From NCBI GenBank assembly GCA_035567755.1, contig DATMPH010000026.1:533-64532 (forward strand): 64,000 nt of DNA, given 5' to 3'. Within the stretch, counting starts at the first letter, position 1. The number at the start of each line of letters is the position of its first letter. This document shows, piece after piece, positions 52,257 through 64,000 of the stretch. Made by a program: the position numbers and the translations under genes. The stretch is from Rhizomicrobium sp. (lineage in GTDB: Bacteria > Pseudomonadota > Alphaproteobacteria > Micropepsales > Micropepsaceae). The notes under the pieces are model-generated. The model did not search any database. It worked only from the letters and a program-made list of their open reading frames with translations, and was not told the origin of the DNA.

Positions 52257-52751
52257 ATGACGGACCCATCTCCCTCTCCACCTCCGGACGATGACGAGTC
52301 GCACGGACGGTGGCCGTTCATCCGCGACGTGCTCGTGCTGCAATTGAAATTGCTGATCGGGAACCTTCACAATTTCATTCTCATTCCCGCGACGACGATC
52401 GCTGCGGCGGTCGATCTGATTTTCAGGTCAGGCCGGCATGGCTCGCGCTTCTATCGCGTTCTGGAATGGGGCCGGCAGGCCGATGAGGCGATCGGCCTTT
52501 ATGGCGCGCTCGATCGCCGCGACCACGAGCTGAAACGCGACCTCACAGTCGATGCCCTGGTGTCGCGGCTCGAAAGCGCGATCATTCGCGAATATGAGAA
52601 GGGCGGAACTGCAGCCGGCGTGAAGAGCGCGGTCGATCGCGCGCTCGATCAGCTGCATCGCGAAGCCGGCACGGCGACTACCCAGGCACGCGAAGCGGCG
52701 CTACGTTTGAAGGATAGAATCACCACTCCGACCGGCAAGGGCGCAACGTGA
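52257..52751 (+). CDS. hypothetical protein
   Basis: Coherent ORF whose stop overlaps the GH47 GTG start. Confidence 0.55.
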   Translation: MTDPSPSPPPDDDESHGRWPFIRDVLVLQLKLLIGNLHNFILIPATTIAAAVDLIFRSGRHGSRFYRVLEWGRQADEAIGLYGALDRRDHELKRDLTVDALVSRLESAIIREYEKGGTAAGVKSAVDRALDQLHREAGTATTQAREAALRLKDRITTPTGKGAT

Positions 52752-54172
52752 CGATCCCGTCGGGCGGACCGATCAAACACATTGCGCGGCGCTCGCTGCT
52801 TCGCATGTTGGCCGGCGCGGTCTCGTTCGCGGGATTGCCCGTCGAAGCACGCACATCAGCCCAACGCGGGCACCACGCCGATTGGGCTAAGTTTGCGCAG
52901 GACGTTCGCGCGGAGATGGCCTGGGCCTGGCGCAACTATGTCGAGCTCGCCTTCGGTCACGATCAGATCAAGCCGGTCAGCGGCGGTGCGGAGGAATTCT
53001 TCCTGCCGGGAGGGCCGGCTCTCGGTCTGAGTATCGTCGAGGCGCTCGATACGCTTTATTTAATGGGCCTCGACGCGGAGCTCGAGGTGGGCGTTCGCTG
53101 GATCGAAAAAAATCTCCACTTCGATATCGACGGCGAAGTCCAGGTGTTCGAGACCAATATCCGCATGGTCGGCGGCCTTCTTTCCGGCTGGCTGGCGACG
53201 CGAAACAGGCACCTTCTCGATCTGGCGCGCGATCTCACCGATCGGCTTCTTCCCGCCTTTTCGAAATCGCCAACCGGAATTCCCTATCGATTCGTCAATC
53301 TCAGGACCGGCGCGGTGCGCGACGCAACGACGTTTCCGGCCGAGCTCGGCACCTATATTTCGGAGTTCGGCACGCTATCACGCGCAGTAGGCGACCCACG
53401 CTACTATGATGCGGCCAAGAAGGCTGCGAAAGCGTGCTTCGACCGGCGCTCGAGCATCGATCTCGTCGCCGACACGATCGATGCGGAAACGGGAAAATGG
53501 CTGAGCCGTCGCGCCACGATCGGACCGCCGTCGGACTCCTATTTCGAATATCTGTATGGCGGCTGGCGGTTGTTTGCGGATGCGGATTTCAAACGCTGGT
53601 ATGACGTCCATGCCGCCGCGATCCTGGAGCATCAGGCGGAGCGCGTCGATGGCCGGTTGTGGTTCGCGCAGGTCGACTTCGAAACCGGCGCTCGGCTCGA
53701 CCGCCACCAGAGCGAACTGGCCTCATTCTATGCCGGCCTGCTCGCCAAGGCAGGCGATCTCGGCCACGCAAGTGACTATCTCGCTTCCTGGGCGGACGTG
53801 CAGGTGCACTTCCAGGTCCTGCCCGAAGGCTTTGACTACGGCACGTTTCAGGCGACGCGCGCGAGCAACGAGCTGCGTCCGGAATTTGCCGATTCCTGCC
53901 TGGCTCTTTTCGTGCATGGCGGCGGTGAACCCTATCGGCAGCTCGCGCGCATCCACTATGAGAACATGAAGCGCACAAGCCGCGCGCGTTTCGGTTACAC
54001 CATCCTCGATAGTGTCACCGAGCACCCGATGAGGCAGGGCGATCTTTGTCCCGGTTACTGGTGGGCCGAGCAGATGAAGTACTATTGGCTGGCGTTCTCT
54101 GGCACGCCGCGCTTCGACTACCGGAACAATTATCTGTCGACGGAAGGCAAGGTGCTTGTGGGTCTTAAATGA
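52748..54172 (+). CDS. glycoside hydrolase family 47 (alpha-1,2-mannosidase-like) with Tat-like signal
   Basis: RRSLL signal; AW..Y...AFGHD, VFETNIRMVGGLLS, DSYFEYL, LRPE, AEQMKY, STEG. Confidence 0.88.
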   Translation: MTIPSGGPIKHIARRSLLRMLAGAVSFAGLPVEARTSAQRGHHADWAKFAQDVRAEMAWAWRNYVELAFGHDQIKPVSGGAEEFFLPGGPALGLSIVEALDTLYLMGLDAELEVGVRWIEKNLHFDIDGEVQVFETNIRMVGGLLSGWLATRNRHLLDLARDLTDRLLPAFSKSPTGIPYRFVNLRTGAVRDATTFPAELGTYISEFGTLSRAVGDPRYYDAAKKAAKACFDRRSSIDLVADTIDAETGKWLSRRATIGPPSDSYFEYLYGGWRLFADADFKRWYDVHAAAILEHQAERVDGRLWFAQVDFETGARLDRHQSELASFYAGLLAKAGDLGHASDYLASWADVQVHFQVLPEGFDYGTFQATRASNELRPEFADSCLALFVHGGGEPYRQLARIHYENMKRTSRARFGYTILDSVTEHPMRQGDLCPGYWWAEQMKYYWLAFSGTPRFDYRNNYLSTEGKVLVGLK

Positions 54173-54216
54173 TGCGCTTGAGGGCCATCCAGGTTTCATA
54201 TTTGGTCGCGCTAACC

Positions 54217-54356
54217 TTTCCTCCCCCATCGTGGGGGAGGTGCCGAGCGGAGCGAGGCGGAGGAGGACGTGGCTCGCGCGGCGCGCGTTCAGACTTCCCC
54301 CTCCGGTTTGCTCCGCTTCGCTCCGCAAACCACCTCCCCCACGATGGGGGAGGAAA
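54217..54356. repeat. 140-bp palindromic intergenic element (CIR/REP-like) with TTTCCTCCCCCATCGTGGGGGAGGT arms
   Basis: Left arm 54217-54241 is the exact reverse complement of the right arm ending at 54356. Confidence 0.85.
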
Positions 54357-54414
54357 ATAAGAGCGAGATTTCACGTCGGCCTGACTGACCCAGAACAGGT
54401 TCGAAGGAGACAGC

Positions 54415-55029
54415 ATGCTCGAACAGCTGAAGGCCAACAACCGCGACTGGGCGGCGCGGAAAGTCGCGACCGATGCCGAATTCTTCCACCGGCTCGAACG
54501 CCAGCAGGCGCCGGAATATCTGTGGATCGGCTGTTCCGACAGCCGCGTGCCCGCCAACGAGATCGTAGGTCTGGATCCGGGCGAGTTGTTCGTTCACCGC
54601 AACGTCGCCAATCTCGCGCCGCCCCAGGATTCGAACTATCTATCGGTGCTGCAATTCGCCGTCGACGTGTTGAAGGTCAAGCATATTCTCGTGGTCGGGC
54701 ATTACGGGTGCGGCGGCGTCGGCGCAGCGGTCGATGGCAGGCGGCGCGGGCTTGTGGATCATTGGCTTCACCCGATTCGCGAAACCTTTGATCAGCACCG
54801 GCAGGAACTTGACGCCATCCTCGACGAACCCGAACGCCTGAATCGTCTCTGCGAACTGAACGTCATGCGGCAGGTTAAAAACGTTGCAACCGACGTGTTC
54901 GTGCGGGACGCCTGGACACGCGGACAGAATCTGAGCGTTCACGGCTGGGTTTATTCTCTGAGCAACGGACTGGTGAAGGATCTCGACGTGACGATCAGCA
55001 ATCCGCTCGAAGCCGAACGGCTGGGCTGA
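54415..55029 (+). CDS. can: beta-class carbonic anhydrase
   Basis: WIGCSDSRVP, FVHRNVAN, GHYGCGG. Confidence 0.93.
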   Translation: MLEQLKANNRDWAARKVATDAEFFHRLERQQAPEYLWIGCSDSRVPANEIVGLDPGELFVHRNVANLAPPQDSNYLSVLQFAVDVLKVKHILVVGHYGCGGVGAAVDGRRRGLVDHWLHPIRETFDQHRQELDAILDEPERLNRLCELNVMRQVKNVATDVFVRDAWTRGQNLSVHGWVYSLSNGLVKDLDVTISNPLEAERLG

Positions 55030-55052
55030 TGCGTGCTCTCGACGGCGAGAAA

Positions 55053-55190
55053 AAGCTTCTAACGCGGAGGACGCAAAGGTTGCGCAGTGTACGCTGAGTT
55101 TTTTTGCGCGCGTCGCGCGCCGTAAGATCCTCTGCGTTCCCCCGCGCATCCACCGCGACCACTGCGTTAAAATCTTTCGGCGTCGCGCGC
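55053..55190. repeat. REP/MITE-like element copy A (AACGCRGAGGACGC arms, central GCGCGC hairpin)
   Basis: Self-palindromic; matches the reverse complement of 58786-58922. Confidence 0.85.
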
Positions 55191-55201
55191 AGAACAGAAC
55201 G

Positions 55202-58200
55202 TCAGTCCTGTGCCTGTCCGAACCCGCCACCGCCGGGCGTGGCAATCAGGATTTGGTCGCCGGGCGTGACGGCGATCTCGTCGCGGCCCCTGAGCGCGAT
55301 CGTCTCGCCGCCGGCGCGGATCACCATGTTGGCGCCCGGCAAGCCCGGTTCGCCGCCCTTCAGCCCGAAAGGCTCGGTTTCGCGCCGTGTCGACAGGATC
55401 GCCGCCGTCATGTCTTCGTGGAAACGTATGCGCCGCAACACGCCATCGCCGCCGTGATGGCGGCCCTTGCCGCCGGAACCGTGGCGGATCGAGAACTCCT
55501 CGAGCAACACGGGATAGCGCGTCTCGAGAATTTCCGGATCCGTCAGACGCGAATTGGTCATGTGGGTGTGCACGGCCGATGCGCCGTCGAAATCGGCGCC
55601 CGCTCCGGCGCCGCCGCAAATCGTCTCGTAATATTGGTGATTGGCGTTGCCGAAGGTGAGGTTGTTCATGGTGCCCTGCGCGGCGGCCATCACGCCCAGG
55701 GCGCCGAACAGTGCGTCGACAACGGCCTGGCTCGTCTCCACATTGCCGCCGGCGACGGCCGCCGGATAGCGCGGATTGAGCAGCGAACCCTCGGGCACCA
55801 CGATCTCGAGCGGCTTGAGGCATCCGGCGTTCAGCGGAATGTCGTCGCCGACGAGGCAGCGGAATACATAAAGGACCGCGGCCTTCGTCACCGAGCGCGG
55901 CGCATTCAGATTGGTGTCGCTCTGCGAAGAGGTGCCGCCGAAATCGACGCGTGCGCAGCGGCGTTCGCGGTCGACGGTGATCGCAACGCGGATCTCTAAG
56001 CCGCCATCCATCGGCAGGATGAACGCACCATCGGCCAGCGCGCCCATGACCTTCCGCACCGCCTCCTCGGCGTTGTCCTGTACGTGGCGCATGTAGGCCG
56101 TGATGGTGTCCGCGCCGTAAAGCTGCGCCGCGCGCTGCAGTTCGGAGATGCCCCGCGTGCACGAAGCTGCCTGCGCCTTGAGATCGGCGATGTTCTGATC
56201 GGGATTGCGTGCGGGGTGCTCGCCCGCGCATAGAACCGCGCGCACGGCATTTTCGTCGAAGTGGCCTGCCTCAACCATTCGGATGGCGTCGAAGAGCGCT
56301 CCTTCTTCGCGAATATCGCAAGAGAAGGGTGGCATGGAGCCCGGAGAAATCCCGCCGATATCGGCGTGATGTCCGCGCGCCGCCACGAAGAATCGCCGAT
56401 CGCGCCCGATAAAGACCGGCGCAACCACGGTGACGTCGGGCAGATGGGTTCCGCCATCGTATGGCGCGTTGCTCGCGAACATATCGCCCTCCGCCATTGT
56501 GGTCCCGTAGCGCGCGATGATCGACGCGACGCAATCGCCCATCGATCCGAGATGCACGGGCATGTGCGGCGCATTGGCGACGAGGTTGCCCTCCGCGTCG
56601 AAGACGGCGCAGGAAAAATCGAGCCGCTCCTTGATGTTCACCGAGGAGGCGGTGCTTTGCAGCGTGGCGCCCATTTCCTCGGCGATCGCCATGAACAGAT
56701 TGGCCATCACCTCGAGCAGGACGGGATCGGCAGCGGTAGCAGCATGCCGGAACGCGGATCTCGGCGTTGTGCGCGTGAGGATCACGGCGCGCGCAGAATT
56801 CATTTCCGCGCGCCAGCCGGGCTCGACCACGATCGTCTGATGAGGCTCGATGAGAAGAGCCGGGCCGTCCGTTTTCGCACCGCTCGTATCGACGACATCG
56901 CAATCCCGCCATTCGTGCTGCGAATAGAATCGCGCCCGGTCGATTGCGGGATGTTGAGCCGTCGCCGGCGGTGGTTCTTGCGCGTCTCCAACGGCTTCCC
57001 GGCTCCAGGCTTCTATTTCAACCGATTCCACGATCAGCGGCCTGTTTTCGAAGCCGAATCCGAATTGCTGTGCATGTGTTGACGCAAAGTGGCCCGTCAT
57101 CTCCTCTGCTTGCCCGACTCGAATGGGCAGCGTCGTGTCGCTGCCCACGTAGCGGATATGGGCGATGGCCTGCGTCGCGACATTGCGGCCGCCCTGCGCC
57201 TCGACATCGCTTGCCGCGTCCTTCGCCAGGTCCTGCGCGCTCTGCGCGAGCTGATTCGCGAGTACGCTATCGAGCACGCTGTTGATCGAACGCTGGCGGA
57301 AGGTTCTGAGCGATGCGAGCCGCATGCCATAAGCCGAAAGCAGTCCGGAGAACGGATGGATGAAAATGCGAGAAATGCCGAGCGCATCGGCGACGAGGCA
57401 GGCGTGCTGCCCGGCCGCGCCGCCGAAGCAGGCGAGGGCGTAACCGCGCACGTCATGACCGCGGGCGACCGATATCCGTTTGATGGCGTTCGCCATGTTC
57501 TCGACGGCGATGCGGATGAATCCGTCGGCCACGTCTTCGGGGGTGCGATTCGTTACGTGTGCGAGAAGTTCGAAAGCGGCGCGAACGCAATCTTCGTCAA
57601 GCGCCTGATCTCCCTGCGCGCCGAAAATTCGGGGGAAGCGGTCTTTGCGCAGCTTGCCCACGAGCAGATTGGCGTCGGTGACGGTGAGCGGGCCGCCACG
57701 CCGATAGCTCATCGGTCCCGGATTGGCGCCCGCCGAATCAGGCCCGACGCGAAAGCGTGCGCCGTCATAGTGCAGAATCGAGCCGCCGCCCGCCGCGATC
57801 GTATGAATCGCCATCATCGGCACGCGCAGGCGCACGCCCGAGATCTCGCATTCCTGGGTGCGTTCATAGACGCCGTCGAAGCGCGACACGTCCGTCGATG
57901 TTCCGCCCATGTCGAAGCCGATCACCCGGTCGAAGCCTGCCGCGCGCGCCGTCTCCACCATGCCGACGACGCCGCCCGCTGGACCGGACAGCACGGCATC
58001 CTTGCCATGAAAAGCTTCCGCGGCCGCGAGACCGCCACTCGATGTCATGAAGTAGAGCCGCGATGCGCCCCGGCCCGCACCGATCTTTTCGGCGATACGC
58101 TTCGAATACCGCCCCAGAACGGGAGACAGATAGGCATCGGCGACGGTTGTATCGCCGCGGCTGACATATTTGATCAGCGGCACGGTCGCGTGACTGGTCG

Positions 58201-58771
58201 AGACCTGCGCAAATCCGAGGCCTCGCGCGATTTCCGCCGCGCGCCGCTCGTGCGCGGAAAAGCGATAGCCGTGCATGAAAACGATGGCGCAGGCCGCGAA
58301 GCCTTCGGCGCGGGCGGAAGCGAGATCGTGCGCGAGCAAGGCTTCGTCGAGCGGACGAACGACCCCGCCTTCGGCGCTGACACGTTCGTCCGCCTCGATG
58401 ACCTTCTCGTACAGCGGCTGCGGAAGATCGATGCGGAGCACAAAAAGTTTCGGCCGGTTCTGATACCCGACACGAAGCTGGTCCCTGAATCCACGCGTCG
58501 TGATGAGGAGAACGCGCTCGCCGCGCCGCTCGAGGAGAGCGTTCGTCGCGACTGTCGTTCCGACGCGAAGCTCGACGAGGGATGCGGGAGGAATGTCGGA
58601 GTTGGTTGGCACACCGAGGAAGCGGCGTATGCCTTCGAGCGCGGCGTCGTCGTAGCGGTCGCTCTCCGACAGCAGTTTAAGACTGGAGAGTCTGCCATCC
58701 GGCGCTTGCGCCACCACGTCGGTGAACGTACCGCCCCGATCGACATAAAACCGCCAGCCAACGTTTGTCAT
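55202..58771 (-). CDS. 5-oxoprolinase (fused hydantoinase A/B type)
   Basis: [75 protein letters not shown]. Confidence 0.92.
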
Positions 58772-58785
58772 GCACTCACCCTACA

Positions 58786-58922
58786 GCGCGCTCCGCCGAA
58801 AGATTTTAACGCGGAGGACGCGGTGGAAGCGCGGGGGACGCGGAGGAACTTATAGCGCGCTACGCGCGCAAAAAACCTCTGCGTCCTCTGCGCAACCTCT
58901 GCGTCCTCCGCGTTAAAACCTT
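58786..58922. repeat. REP/MITE-like element copy B, inverted relative to copy A
   Basis: Manual alignment to the reverse complement of A: 119/138 identical. Confidence 0.85.
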
Positions 58923-58976
58923 CTCTCGACGTTAAAACCTTCTCTCTCCGGCCAGATTGGCTTAATGGTTTTGGTC

Positions 58977-59708
58977 ATGTCCATTTGGGGCAAACTGGGC
59001 GGCGCCGCCGCGGGATTTCTGCTCGGCGGCGGACCGATCGGCGCGCTCGCGGGCTTCGTCGCGGGCCATGTGCTCTTTGATCGCGGCGCCGGTGCAGAGG
59101 ACGGCCAGGAACACGGCATCGTCTTCACCATCGCGATCATCGCGCTCGGTGCGAAGATGGCGAAGGCCGACGGCGTCGTCACGCCGGACGAGGTCGAAGC
59201 CTTCGGCCGCATCTTCCGCGTGCCGCATTCGGAAGAAGCCAATGTCCGCCGCGTATTCGATCTGGCGCGGCAGGACACGGCCGGGTACGAGGCCTATGCG
59301 GGCCAGATCGCGCGCCTGTTCCGTCACAACCCCGCCGTGCTTGAAGACATTCTCGACGGCCTGTTCGAGATTGCGAAAGCCGATGGCATCCTGCATCCGG
59401 CCGAGCTGCAGTTCCTCGAGCGTGTCTCGGATATTTTCGGCTTTGCGCCCGACGAGTTCCTGCGCATCCGCGCCTCCCACGTGGGGCCGGACCTGGCCGA
59501 CCCATACACCATCCTGGGCGTCGATCGGCGCGCGAGCGAGGATGAAGTCAAGCGCACCTATCGCATGCTCGTACGTGAAAATCATCCCGACAGCCTGATT
59601 GCACGTGGCGTTCCTGAGGAATTCGTGCGCCTGGCCAATGACAAACTGGCCGCCATCAACGGCGCCTATGACAGGATCATCCGCGAGCGCCGGGTCGGCG
59701 CGGAGTAG
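58977..59708 (+). CDS. djlA: DjlA/TerB-family co-chaperone with C-terminal J-like domain
   Basis: MSIWGK..GAAAGF, AKMAKADGVV, DPYTILGV, ENHPD. Confidence 0.82.
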   Translation: MSIWGKLGGAAAGFLLGGGPIGALAGFVAGHVLFDRGAGAEDGQEHGIVFTIAIIALGAKMAKADGVVTPDEVEAFGRIFRVPHSEEANVRRVFDLARQDTAGYEAYAGQIARLFRHNPAVLEDILDGLFEIAKADGILHPAELQFLERVSDIFGFAPDEFLRIRASHVGPDLADPYTILGVDRRASEDEVKRTYRMLVRENHPDSLIARGVPEEFVRLANDKLAAINGAYDRIIRERRVGAE

Positions 59709-59719
59709 GCCGCAAAACG

Positions 59720-60433
59720 ATGGCCCTGCATTTCGTCGAGCGTCCCTCGCCCAATCATGACCCGCGGCCGGCGGGCGCGGCAGTCGATATACTCGTCCTG
59801 CACTACACGGGCATGCGCACCGCCGAAGAGGCGCTCGACCGGTTGTGCGATCCCGAAGCGAAAGTATCGTCGCACTACACGATCGACCGCGACGGGTGCA
59901 TCTATCGCCACGTTGACGAGGACCGGCGCGCGCGGCACGCCGGAGTCTCATGGTGGGCCGGCGAGCGCGATGTCAACGGCCGCTCGATCGGAATCGAACT
60001 CGTCAATCCGGGACACGAATTCGGCTATGTTCCTTTTCCCGAAGCGCAAATCGATGCGCTCATGGAACTCGCGCACGCCATCCTCGCGCGCCATCCCGTT
60101 CCGGCAAATCGTGTCGTGGGCCATTCCGACGTAGCCCCCGCCCGCAAGATGGATCCAGGAGAGCTGTTTCCCTGGCGACAATTGGCTGACGCCGGCATCG
60201 GCGTTTTTCCTCCCCCATCGTGGGGGAGGTGGCCCGAAGGGCCGGAGGGGGATTTCGCCGACATGCTCAGACAATTCGGCTACGGTGTCGCGCCGGACCT
60301 CGACATTCCACTCACCACCGTCACGACAGCTTTCCAGCGCCACTTCCGGCCGGAGAAGGTCGATGGAATTGCAGACGACGAAACGCAAGCGCGACTTTGG
60401 TCCCTTGTGTCTCTGAACCGGAATCGGAGTTGA
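59720..60433 (+). CDS. N-acetylmuramoyl-L-alanine amidase (AmpD/AmiD type) with C-terminal peptidoglycan-binding motif
   Basis: LHYTGM, VSSHY, RARHAG, SIGIEL, GHSDVAP.RK.DPG, AFQRHFRP. Confidence 0.92.
   Translation: MALHFVERPSPNHDPRPAGAAVDILVLHYTGMRTAEEALDRLCDPEAKVSSHYTIDRDGCIYRHVDEDRRARHAGVSWWAGERDVNGRSIGIELVNPGHEFGYVPFPEAQIDALMELAHAILARHPVPANRVVGHSDVAPARKMDPGELFPWRQLADAGIGVFPPPSWGRWPEGPEGDFADMLRQFGYGVAPDLDIPLTTVTTAFQRHFRPEKVDGIADDETQARLWSLVSLNRNRS
60205..60251 (+). repeat. half of the 54217-54356 element embedded in frame in the amidase CDS
   Basis: 28-nt exact match to the reverse complement of the element's right arm, then a GGCCC-GAA-GGGCC hairpin and CCGGAGGGGG. Confidence 0.8.
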
Positions 60434-60446
60434 GTGATACGCAAAA

Positions 60447-60571
60447 AAGATTCAGCGCAGAGGACGCAGAGGATGCGCAGTGGACGCCGGAAGATAACGG
60501 CGCGCGAAGCGCGCCAGTTTTTTCCTCTGCGCCCTCTGCGCATCCTCTGCGCCCACTGCGCTAAGAATCTT
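60447..60571. repeat. REP/MITE-like element copy C (same family as A and B, more diverged)
   Basis: AAGATTC...GAATCTT ends, GCGCAGAGGACGCAGAGG arms, central GCGCGAAGCGCGC. Confidence 0.8.
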
Positions 60572-60594
60572 GTTGGTTGAAGAGGCACGCGCCA

Positions 60595-61287
60595 GTGAAA
60601 ACCATTGGCATGATTGGCGGGATGAGCTGGGAATCGACCGCTGTCTATTATCGCGTCGCCAATCGCGCCGTGCAGACGCGACTGGGCGGGTTGCACTCTG
60701 CAAAGCTATTGCTGTGGTCGTTCGATTTTGCCGACATCCAGTCGCTCCAGGAAGCCGGGAACTGGCCCGAGGCTTCGCGGCGCATGGTCCATGCCGCGTG
60801 CACCCTTGTTCAGGGCGGCGCCCAATTCCTCATCATCTGCTGCAACACCATGCACATGATGGCGGATGCGGTGGAGCAGGGCGCGGGCGTGCCGCTTCTG
60901 CATATCGCCACGCCATTGGGCGCCGCGATCGCCGGCCGCAGATTGGCGCGCGTCGGTCTTCTCGGCACGAAATACACCATGCAAGCCGATTTCCTTCGCG
61001 CGCCGCTCGCGTGGGAGCATGGCGTGGAGATCATCGCGCCCGCGCCGGACGATGCATACGAGACCCATCGCATTATTTACGAGGAACTGTCGCGCGGGCA
61101 GTTCCTGGAATCTTCGCGTCGCAATCTTCGCCACATCATCGCGAGATTGGCGAGCCGCGGCGCGGAAGGTATCATTCTGGGCTGCACCGAGCTTCCGCTG
61201 CTCGTGAGCGCAGAGGACTCCGAGATTCCTCTGTTCGACACTGCCGAACTTCACGCACTCGCCGCAGTCGAGATGGCGCTTGCCTGA
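60595..61287 (+). CDS. aspartate/glutamate racemase family protein (GTG start)
   Basis: KTIGMIGGMSWEST, ICCNTMH, GLLGTKYTM, ILGCTEL. Confidence 0.9.
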   Translation: MKTIGMIGGMSWESTAVYYRVANRAVQTRLGGLHSAKLLLWSFDFADIQSLQEAGNWPEASRRMVHAACTLVQGGAQFLIICCNTMHMMADAVEQGAGVPLLHIATPLGAAIAGRRLARVGLLGTKYTMQADFLRAPLAWEHGVEIIAPAPDDAYETHRIIYEELSRGQFLESSRRNLRHIIARLASRGAEGIILGCTELPLLVSAEDSEIPLFDTAELHALAAVEMALA

Positions 61288-61690
61288 TCTCGTGAGCAAA
61301 CTCCTGCGGTTCCCGTGCGCTGTTCCGCGAGACCCCGGCGTTGATGCCTGGTTTTCCAGGCCCGAGGATGAGTTGCGACGGTTCGCCCAGCCATGGTTTG
61401 AACAAATGCGTGGCTGCGGAGCGGATGTTTGCGAGATTCTGCACGATGGCCATCCTACTGCGTGTGTGGGAGATGCGCCGTTTGGGTACGTCAACGCCTT
61501 CAGTTCTCATGTGAATGTCGGCTTCTTCTACGGGGCGGTGCTCGACGACCCGGCCGGCCTTCTGGAAGGCGCCGGCAAACGTATGCGGCACGTGAAGCTC
61601 CGCTGGGCGCAACAAGTGAACGCCGCTGCACTGAGCAAACTTATAGAGGCTGCATACCGGGACATCCGGTTGCGTCTCAGCTCCGCGTAG
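61280..61690 (+). CDS. DUF1801 (YdhG-like) protein
   Basis: HDGHPTAC, YVNAFSSHVNVGFFYGA.L.DPAGLLEGAGKRMRHVKL. Confidence 0.75.
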   Translation: MPDLVSKLLRFPCAVPRDPGVDAWFSRPEDELRRFAQPWFEQMRGCGADVCEILHDGHPTACVGDAPFGYVNAFSSHVNVGFFYGAVLDDPAGLLEGAGKRMRHVKLRWAQQVNAAALSKLIEAAYRDIRLRLSSA

Positions 61691-62207
61691 TCAGTTCCTC
61701 GGCCACGTACGTCTTCCACAGGTCGGTCAAGGTTAGCGATGTCTCGCACTTCACTTCGCGCATGATGGAATCGACGTAATTGCGATAGTTCCCGCTCAGG
61801 CTGTCGCGCGCCATTTTCCACGCCACGCGATAGGCCGGGTATCCGAGCAGCCTTTTGAGAACCGTGGCGTCCGAATTCCAGCTGCGGGCATCGAGCATAT
61901 TGGCCTGAAACTGGAGAAATGAATTTTCATAGTTCCAGAAAATCGAGCCGGCAAAGCCATAGAAGGCCCAAATCTTCGCGGGATCCATCGCCGCACAGTT
62001 CCTGTCGGCCTCTGCAACCAGTTCGCCCACGAACGGGTCCGACATCTTCAGAAGCGTGTCCACGTTTCTGGCGGTGCGTCCCTGCTGCATCAGGGATCTC
62101 TGGTTCAGATTGGCCTGACGCATCTGCAGCGCCAGGAAGATCAACGAAAAGACGACTGCGGTGCTGGAAACGAAAGTACCAACGGCCGCGAGATCGGAAA
62201 GTGACAT
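61677..62207 (-). CDS. hypothetical protein with N-terminal membrane anchor
   Basis: MSLSDLAAVGTFVSSTAVVFSLIFLALQMRQ followed by a helical domain. Confidence 0.6.
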   Translation of the reverse strand: MSLSDLAAVGTFVSSTAVVFSLIFLALQMRQANLNQRSLMQQGRTARNVDTLLKMSDPFVGELVAEADRNCAAMDPAKIWAFYGFAGSIFWNYENSFLQFQANMLDARSWNSDATVLKRLLGYPAYRVAWKMARDSLSGNYRNYVDSIMREVKCETSLTLTDLWKTYVAEELTTRS

Positions 62208-62279
62208 GGACGGATTTCCCCCGAGGAATCTGCGTCATCCTCATAGTCAGCTGTGGTCCGGCAATGCTAGTGTGATCCT

Positions 62280-62721
62280 GCGTCAGATGGCCGGATGGCC
62301 GCCCGCCTACGCCCTTCGGGCTACGGCGCGACAAGCCCGTTGTGGGCCTGCCGCGCCGAAGTCGCGAAGCGACGAAGGCGGGAGGAAAGTCCGGGCTCCA
62401 CGGAGACACGGTGCCGGATAACATCCGGCGGGGGTGACCCCAGGGATAGCGCCACAGAAAACAAACCGCCCGGCGAAGCCCCGAAAGGGGCGAAGACGGG
62501 CAAGGGTGAAACGGTGCGGCAAGAGCGCACCGCGCGGACGGCAACGGACGCGGCACGGCAAGCCCCACCGGGAGCAAGACCAAATAGGGACGGCGCACGA
62601 CCCGTTTCCGGGTTGCCGTCCGGGTCGGTCGCGCGAGGCGTCCGGTAACGGGCGTCCCAGAGGAATGGCCATCTCTCCGCGAAAGCGGGGAACAGAACCC
62701 GGCTTACAGGCCATCTGACGC
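62280..62721 (+). ncRNA. rnpB: RNase P RNA (type A)
   Basis: GAGGAAAGTCCGGGC, AGGGTGAAACGGTGCGGCAAGAGCGCACC, CAGAACCCGGCTTA; P1 GCGTCAGATGGCC/GGCCATCTGACGC. Confidence 0.97.
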
Positions 62722-62800
62722 ATTATTGCCGCCCAATTCTGTCACCATGGGGAGCCAAGGCCGCCATGTATTTGGCTCACGGCGCCCCCAAAAAAACTCG

Positions 62801-62831
62801 TTATGGCCGTGACAACAGCCCGGCCATGACG
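62801..62831. repeat. degenerate REP-like hairpin ATGGCCG...CGGCCATGAC
   Basis: 7-bp inverted repeat resembling the rhizobial GATGGCCGGGACAAGCCCGGCCATGAC-type palindrome. Confidence 0.45.
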
Positions 62832-63067
62832 ATGGTAGGACGCAGGTGCTCAAAACAGAATCGGAGCGTCCGTTCTTTGCGGTCTCGCGCAAGGTGCTGA
62901 GCGAGAATGGGCATTTCTCTGGCGTCCTGAGCTTCGATAAGCCGCCGAAAAATGGAATTGTCCGCTTCCAATCACGGGTCATCGGGGGAATGCCGGTTGA
63001 TTTCCGCGTTGATCCGCCTCAAGACTGCGCGCCACAATCCGCAATATGACCAACCCGGAGGGGTCCC

Positions 63068-64000
63068 ATGAAACGCAGCTTCGCGCTGGCGGCCATGACA
63101 TTGGCCGTCGCAATGCCATTTTCCGCGGGGGCGCAGACCCTCACCAATCTCGCGAATCAGCCGCCGGACGGCGCGTACATCACCATGCAGATGACCGACG
63201 GCACGGTCATAGCGCAGGGCGGTAATCTGAATGATTGGTGGAAGCTCACGCCTGACAATACGGGGAGCTACAAGAACGGTACCTGGACACAGCTCGCGAC
63301 CCTGCCATCCGGTTACGCGCCTTACGCGATGGCGGAAGCCGTGCTGGCGGACGGTCGGCTGGTGATTTCGGGCGGCGAGTACAATGAAACTTTTAACTGC
63401 TGCCAGTTCACGAACCAGAGCGCGATTTATGATCCGCTGAAGGACAAATGGACGATGATCAAGCCGCCGACCGGGTGGTCCAACATCGGCGACGCTCCGT
63501 CGATCGTATTGCCGGATGGCCGGTTCGTGGTCGGCTACAAATTCCGTACCAAAATGGCTGCGCTGGACCCGGCCACGCTTACGTGGAGCCCTCTTACCTC
63601 GACGGGTAAGAACGGCAACATGATTGCCGAGGAAGGCTGGGTTTTGCTTCCGGACGGCACATTCCTGACTGTTGATGTGAAGGCGCACCCGAAGTCCGAG
63701 CGGTATTATCCCAAGACGGGCGCATGGATCAATGAAGGCGATACGGCCAGCGTCGATCTGCGCGGAGCACAGAATTGCTGCGGCAACTGCATTCCCTATG
63801 GTCGACATAACCAAAAGTGTTACGACCCGCCCGGCGAAACCGGCGCCGCGGTGCGCCGGCCGGACGGTACCGTCTTCGCCACCGGCTCAATCCCCGATAA
63901 TCAGAACACGGCGCATACCGCGATCTGGACGCCGCCCGTCACAGGAAAGAAAGGTCAGTGGACGGCGGGACCGGATTTCCCGAACGGAGACCAGTCATAC
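63068..64000 (+). CDS. secreted kelch/galactose-oxidase-like beta-propeller protein, partial (absent from the ORF track)
   Basis: MKRSFALAAMTLAVAMPFSAGA signal; repeated units MTDGTV, LADGRLVISGG, LPDGRF, LPDGTF, RPDGTVFATG, each with a nearby Trp. Confidence 0.75.
   Translation, partial: MKRSFALAAMTLAVAMPFSAGAQTLTNLANQPPDGAYITMQMTDGTVIAQGGNLNDWWKLTPDNTGSYKNGTWTQLATLPSGYAPYAMAEAVLADGRLVISGGEYNETFNCCQFTNQSAIYDPLKDKWTMIKPPTGWSNIGDAPSIVLPDGRFVVGYKFRTKMAALDPATLTWSPLTSTGKNGNMIAEEGWVLLPDGTFLTVDVKAHPKSERYYPKTGAWINEGDTASVDLRGAQNCCGNCIPYGRHNQKCYDPPGETGAAVRRPDGTVFATGSIPDNQNTAHTAIWTPPVTGKKGQWTAGPDFPNGDQSY

Follow-up and report, generated by a model that had tools for sequence, protein, structure and literature searches.

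A modular palindromic repeat occupies the interdomain linker of an AmpDh2/AmiD-type amidase gene in Rhizomicrobium

How does a conserved cell-wall enzyme come to carry a piece of a dispersed palindromic repeat in its reading frame, and does the gene withstand it? The question is raised by a window of 64,000 nucleotides from a Rhizomicrobium genome, the whole stretch of DNA analysed here, in which 28 nt of an amidase gene (TTTTCCTCCCCCATCGTGGGGGAGGTGG, 60205-60232) are the exact reverse complement of 54330-54357, the right arm of a 142-nt intergenic element. An original prediction had pointed out this match, the hairpin and tail that follow it, and the frame that stays open through both, and all three were found as described. 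The 45 nt concerned are read as FPPPSWGRWPEGPEG within a 237-aa open reading frame, between the Amidase_2 domain and a C-terminal FGYG...AFQRHFRP module.

The Amidase_2 (PF01510) match has an E-value of 1.2e-35 (123 bits), and over aa 18-228 the protein matches Pseudomonas AmpDh2 (PDB 4bj4, 7e-40) and E. coli AmiD (2bh7, 4e-37), with AmpDh3 also among the matches. The C-terminal region aligns with the C-terminal domain of AmpDh2 (4bj4) and AmiD (2bh7), while its PG_binding_1 match of 19.6 bits lies under the 23-bit cut-off. Among 43 homologs H28, E93, H135 and D145 are invariant and K143 is nearly so; by what is known of AmpD, these are presumed to be the catalytic and Zn-binding residues. The protein is devoid of a signal peptide, and a cytoplasmic AmpD-like role in peptidoglycan recycling is probable. 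As in relatives, the gene follows a djlA-like gene. Modelling of the linker, which had been proposed with the prediction, gave an AlphaFold structure (mean pLDDT 89, pTM 0.89) with a C-terminal domain of three helices and with residues 158-178 as a coil (pLDDT 68-77) between two confidently folded domains; these residues align with the variable linker of AmpDh2.

Table 1. Features of the amidase gene, of its half-element and of the repeat family, in window coordinates.
Feature	Position	Strand	Composition or basis
AmpDh2/AmiD-type N-acetylmuramoyl-L-alanine amidase gene, 237 aa	59720..60433	+	ORF, Pfam and PDB matches
Catalytic Amidase_2 domain, aa 20-148	59777..60163	+	PF01510 profile positions 3-131 of 131
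C-terminal peptidoglycan-binding-like helical domain, aa 179-237	60254..60430	+	alignment, model, weak profile match
Repeat-derived codons, read as FPPPSWGRWPEGPEG, aa 163-177 (F163-G177)	60206..60250	+	in frame with both domains
Module A of the half-element	60205..60229	.	T-run and 9-bp-stem hairpin CCTCCCCCA-TCG-TGGGGGAGG; exact reverse complement of 54333-54357; RNA fold
Module B (variant B3) of the half-element	60231..60243	.	second hairpin GGCCCGAAGGGCC; follows module A in about 22 genomic copies; fold
Module C of the half-element, truncation point	60244..60251	.	GGAGGGGG; full elements run further
Full-length repeat member, 142 nt, A-B-C-spacer-C'-B'-A'	54216..54357	.	intergenic
Module A (family)			T-run and hairpin CCTCCCCCA-NNN-TGGGGGAGG
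Module B (family)			second hairpin, interchangeable: GCCGAGCGNAGCGAGGC, GGTTTGC...GCAAACC, GGCCCGAAGGGCC, or one with a further nested element
Module C (family)			GGAGGGGG; then short spacer
Right half (family)			mirror image C'-B'-A', A-run at end

The repeat is a member of a G+C-rich, lineage-specific family, whose full elements are modular, 117-189 nt long and present at least 14 times in the genome. Hairpin A has about 50 copies in this 3.87-Mb genome of 61.6% G+C, against 0 expected by chance; its 21-nt core occurs three times in the window and not once in 100 dinucleotide-preserving shuffles. Solo hairpins with TTTT and AAAA flanks are also present. The exact hairpin was found in 3 of 61 genomes of the genus, and among 185,579 species genomes it is nearly confined to a few MAGs, of Rhizomicrobium or of unclassified alphaproteobacteria. 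With its small size and with A and A' ends that are inverted copies of about 25 nt, the element has the terminal inverted repeats by which a MITE is recognised, and it behaves like a MITE or a REPIN. A direct duplication is not evident in the 14 full copies, which are flanked by TTTT...AAAA, and these flanks are part of the palindrome because they are inverted. A function as intrinsic terminator was considered and rejected: on either strand the hairpin is preceded by the T-run and followed by the A-run, so that no U-run comes after it; the solo hairpins, likewise with a T-run 5' on either strand, are not terminator-like. A link to a Y1-transposase was also sought: the genome has a single PF01797 match (C6:77949-78272, 27.8 bits), and no hairpin copy lies within 1.5 kb of it. 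That transposase gene adjoins other hairpin repeats, of the CTCACCCTGAGCTAGTCGAAGGGTGAG and CCTCATCCTGAGCTTGTCGAAGGATGAGG types, with which it may form a REP/RAYT pair of a different family.

The intergenic member in the window lies between a conserved 474-aa ORF (52748-54172) and 54415-55029, which is taken from its sequence to be a carbonic-anhydrase-like gene, and it folds into one long hairpin (-62 kcal/mol, z -10.7). In the sister species (G011, locus L154) the corresponding intergenic site holds a different palindromic element of like architecture with other hairpins (CCTCCTCCTTGCGGGGAGG, then TCGAAAAACGC...); this site has remained filled although its content changed. An Rfam search of 53500-64000 matched no family to the repeats and found RNase P RNA alone (62283-62722, RF00010, 277 bits). 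At 440 nt against a model of 367 positions, this RNA carries extra sequence, in which the exact hairpin of the amidase repeat does not occur; Rickettsia RPEs have been reported inside RNase P and tmRNA genes (PMC2229807), which makes this RNA a candidate for a repeat-derived insert. A further palindromic repeat (GCGCAGAGGACGCAGAGGATGCGCAGTGGACGCC...GCGCATCCTCTGCGC) lies at 60440-60560, just past the amidase stop, and appears to belong to a ACGCAGAGG family; it is also multi-copy, since public contigs pile up and break there.

Within the amidase gene the repeat ends after module C, and the spacer and the right half (C', B' and A') are missing. Its second hairpin and G-run (22 nt) are identical to those of genomic copies such as C5:35825 and C13:267676, and the arrangement of terminal hairpin, second hairpin and G-run (A-B3-C) recurs in about 22 genomic copies. 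Genomic copies with the left half continue into the right half, so the likeliest origin of the half-element is a deletion within a full element. The structure is real and common to related strains. An independent metagenome contig (L156) has the same half-element with both junctions, encodes a protein 97% identical and likewise shows the neighbours DjlA-amidase-racemase; its identical junctions mean that the half-element is not an assembly artefact. A single AGG to CGG change, synonymous but disruptive to a stem pair, separates the two half-elements. Public Logan contigs end inside the repeat, so that neither DNA nor RNA contigs span it and polymorphism could not be read from them; contigs of a soil metatranscriptome run match the amidase gene on both sides of the repeat. 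Since the 45 nt are a multiple of three and free of stops, they are predicted to be transcribed and translated with the gene, placing the stretches GIGVFPPPSWGR and WPEGPEGDFADMLR in the amidase peptide. The open frame alone is unremarkable, for the half-element is stop-free in six of six frames and the full elements in 69 of 84 (82%). With most element frames stop-free, length would be the main filter on in-frame copies.

What stood in the linker before is indicated by the orthologs. Those from genomes free of the repeat do not carry the PPPSWGRW segment, as the prediction had anticipated, and have an unrelated native linker or other repeats instead. The nearest of them (P0003, P0007 and P0011) have near-identical flanks around an unrelated native linker of 19 codons between GIGV and FA.ML, for example YPALSETMARAVGVADEDA or FPATSDVGPRLDAVMNDKA, and for this reason the repeat replaces rather than adds. 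An ortholog alignment had been proposed in which an indel or a replacement of about 15 aa was to be sought: a replacement is seen, with 15-16 repeat-coded codons for 19 native ones and the linker length roughly kept, and a plain insertion is not. The proposal that selfish DNA creates a new Pro-rich linker thus holds insofar as the repeat supplies the linker, but a native linker was displaced and the event was not a simple insertion of about 15 aa. An aromatic-Pro pair follows GIG in all orthologs, and here it is encoded by TTT CCT, the first two codons of the element, whose end agrees with the native left junction GTTTTTCC. A native linker that is itself a decayed old copy was considered and rejected, because local alignments of three linkers with three element forms scored no higher than shuffled sequence; in the best of the nine comparisons 17 of 500 shuffles did as well.

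Several relatives have the repeat at the same site in other forms. A full 141-nt in-frame copy occupies the linker of P0006, P0004 and P0005 have differing internal deletions with the right end kept (...LPHDGGGK), and in G011 an assembly gap separates the two terminal hairpins; in all four the right terminal hairpin is kept and leads through AAAG into native sequence. In inverted orientation the half-element of the window matches the P0005 copy at 46 of 47 nt, and the left B module of the window copy is unlike the one in P0006. Other Rhizomicrobium linkers are same-hairpin variants with other loops (FPPP[LQRHC]AGEV...SPA.GGGK), and still other orthologs have an unrelated linker element, HHGRPES...GGRVEPGHGE, whose DNA motif GGCCGGGTCNAGCCCGGCCATG is itself dispersed (16 copies in G010 including the amidase copy; control 0). 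Among the best 120 homologs roughly a third have recognisably repeat-derived linkers. In G065 the repeat family is present, yet the amidase linker holds the other repeat type, and the amidase gene shows frame breaks (one in-frame TGA, with matches in two frames). Two further loci, L024 in G002 and L026 in G008, have a linker about 25 aa longer (WPFPERMTPTVAHFIKVESRGGETCDKVIDKQ...) that resembles neither repeat type.

The amidase is one of three genes of this genome with an intragenic copy. The heme A synthase CtaA (C62:48637-49866) contains a full-length in-frame element (FPPPRVGEV...HLPHVGGGK) that splits the Pfam domain; its roughly 45 residues, predicted to lie in the TM4-TM5 loop, are absent from most relatives, and G013, G008 and G004 have other variants or remnants there. 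A PodJ-like protein (C5:24836-27430), with an N-terminal coiled coil, a TM segment and Sel1 repeats, has a 177-nt composite in-frame copy in its variable middle region, and in relatives a single ORF runs across both halves. These two were left by manual and Pfam checks after a genome-wide codon-usage screen for in-frame copies had discriminated poorly. Other candidates were set aside: the ORFs through C5:2440, C13:264604, C13:113006, C13:267654, C19:21921, C45:111943, C29:214604 and C13:167681 have no Pfam match or a non-coding look, and at C14:55530 the gene appears to begin after the repeat.

Very probably, a modular palindromic repeat entered the amidase linker, and its left half, after an internal deletion, is now translated as a near-neutral replacement linker. 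By this account a lineage-specific, G+C-rich palindromic repeat would have entered the interdomain linker, and an internal deletion of the full copy would most likely have left the left half alone; the 45 nt would then be transcribed and translated with the gene, replacing about 19 native residues. The loss of the native linker would call for an extra step, by deletion or recombination. As an unstructured connection between two folded domains, the segment would tolerate replacement, which would probably be near-neutral, with the amidase remaining under purifying selection. Against relatives, dN/dS is 0.07-0.14 in the catalytic domain and, between repeat-bearing lineages, 0.13-0.19 in the C-terminal domain, so both domains are under purifying selection. 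With dN/dS of 0.07-0.19 at a dS of 0.34-0.46, the amidase gene has remained functional with the repeat inside.

The exact match had been taken as a sign of a recent event, and this is not supported. The same site is occupied in the 97%-identical contig and in repeat-bearing relatives at a dS of 0.34-0.46 from the window gene (catalytic domain), and the match is uninformative on age because the hairpin is near-invariant across the whole family. The insertion is old, unless each lineage was hit separately. The nucleotides of hairpin A are identical between lineages at a dS of about 0.35, which is unexpected for a purely neutral old insert and implies that the hairpin is constrained, that other copies have converted it, or that insertion has happened anew several times. 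Two histories may be read from the site: a single old insertion, later inverted, partly deleted and homogenised, or repeated insertion at a hotspot. In the second the linker would be hit afresh and independently in each lineage, by elements with a preference for existing hairpins like their own or for the native GTTTTTCC, and the window copy could be recent; this is a serious contender that falls somewhat short of an even chance. It would account for the identity of hairpin A, for the junction match, for the inverted orientation relative to P0005 and the unlike left B module relative to P0006, and for the CtaA loop and the 54216 site, which hold different variants in different species. On the ortholog tree, well-supported branches require a minimum of three switches between native and repeat linkers, with at least two unrelated repeat families involved, and the nearest sequence to the window gene by distance is the repeat-free P0003 (dS 0.285). 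Against it, inversion between inverted ends, internal deletions and recombination with native alleles could mimic the pattern from one insertion, and a pair of empty and filled sites was not seen within one population. Protein and DNA trees of the eight closest sequences are star-like and leave the branching unresolved; by the AU test, a single origin of this repeat type in the linker is not rejected (p 0.21).

A wider proposal is that permissive spots such as the amidase linker, the CtaA TM4-TM5 loop and the intergenic 54216 site are long-lived landing pads, on which palindromic repeats turn over and whose occupants target or convert hairpins of their own kind, so that a site, when filled once, would be rewritten over and over. 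It is put forward tentatively, being rather doubtful. If it were true, a frame-filtered, steady supply of new linker peptides would be available across the genus.

It is improbable that the repeat was kept because it is useful, whether through mRNA hairpins that act in pausing between the domains or in stability, or as a better Pro/Gly/Trp-rich linker that restores a W-P motif (RWPEG). The conserved hairpin nucleotides at a dS of about 0.35 would agree with such a use, but intergenic hairpin copies are equally conserved, so the conservation is a trait of the family and not of the amidase site; the contig L156 moreover has its stem-breaking change at a synonymous position, as plain coding sequence would show, and the fold energy of the half-element is no better than that of shuffles (z -0.98). 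A linker length near the native one would also fit, but unrelated linker sequences of anything from 11 to about 70 residues are tolerated in relatives. The B3 module does encode WPE, like the GIGLWPE of more distant orthologs, but close orthologs have F-P or Y-P instead of W-P. That the repeat inactivates the amidase, or splits it into a truncated enzyme and an untranslated remnant, is very improbable: palindromic repeats do often inactivate genes (PMC10969869), but here a single frame runs uninterrupted by stops, the presumed catalytic residues are all intact, the domain past the repeat has the low dN/dS given above, neither hairpin precedes a U-run as in a terminator on the sense strand, and several diverged lineages have kept the structure.

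Rickettsia is the best-known source of in-frame palindromic repeats, which were originally described as peculiar to it. Here at least three conserved proteins of a free-living soil alphaproteobacterium contain coding palindromic repeats. Of greater interest is the recurrent occupancy and rewriting of one linker by different repeats. The amidase linker offers a natural series of native, full-element, deletion, inverted and unrelated-repeat forms, from which the passage of selfish DNA into ordinary protein sequence can be followed, along with the filtering of linker length and composition and any homing of elements to sites already filled. On the practical side, such segments break short-read assemblies, public contigs stopping within the repeat, and the odd Pro/Gly-rich peptides that they encode can mislead the annotation and alignment of conserved enzymes.

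Among the known systems, REP, REPIN and BIME elements resemble the present family as short G+C-rich hairpins in inverted doublets that fold into one long hairpin, and in their module mosaics, lineage-specific variants and sites occupied over long times. REP elements are extragenic by definition. The REPIN/RAYT arrangement differs from the one seen here, where the single Y1-transposase gene is not flanked by copies of the amidase-repeat hairpin. The Caulobacter CIR (CcrM-associated intergenic repeat) had been named in the prediction as a coding palindrome, and it shares with the present elements an alphaproteobacterial host and a length of about 110-140 nt; it is contradicted in that role by its description, being not intragenic, with stops in all six frames and a conserved GANTC (PMC2229807). 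The elements here are mostly stop-free (82% of frames) with three intragenic copies, and the 14 full ones show no enrichment of GANTC, its six occurrences being near the chance rate by a rough base-composition estimate. The intragenic MITEs of enterobacteria and Coxiella, namely ERIC/RU-1, RU-2, RU-3 and QMITE (PMC2759123, PMC2229807, PMC5896051), are likewise small and non-autonomous, with inverted ends and with ORFs fused in frame to host genes. In contrast to them, the repeat here is free of visible TA ends and target-site duplication, no related transposase was found for it, and the sequences are unrelated.

The other comparison made in the prediction, with the Rickettsia RPE, is apt (PMC10969869). 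RPEs (Ogata et al. 2000, 2002, as reviewed in PMC10969869 and PMC2229807) are dispersed palindromes of about 100-150 nt that lie either in intergenic DNA or in frame within conserved protein genes. By comparison with that description, the amidase repeat is taken to be the same kind of element as RPE and coding MITEs, but not of the same family, homology to RPE-1 to RPE-10 being unlikely because of the organism and the base composition. As with RPE, the repeat would be translated as an extra peptide where the fold is undisturbed, here in a coil, and several unrelated housekeeping genes are affected per genome (amidase, CtaA and PodJ-like). The host here is the free-living soil alphaproteobacterium Rhizomicrobium, whereas that of RPE is obligately intracellular; the repeat here is G+C-rich and built of exchangeable hairpin modules, and most of its frames are stop-free, against one conserved coding frame in RPE. 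In conclusion, the amidase repeat differs from RPE also in being halved and replacing a native linker, at a site that holds different repeats across species.
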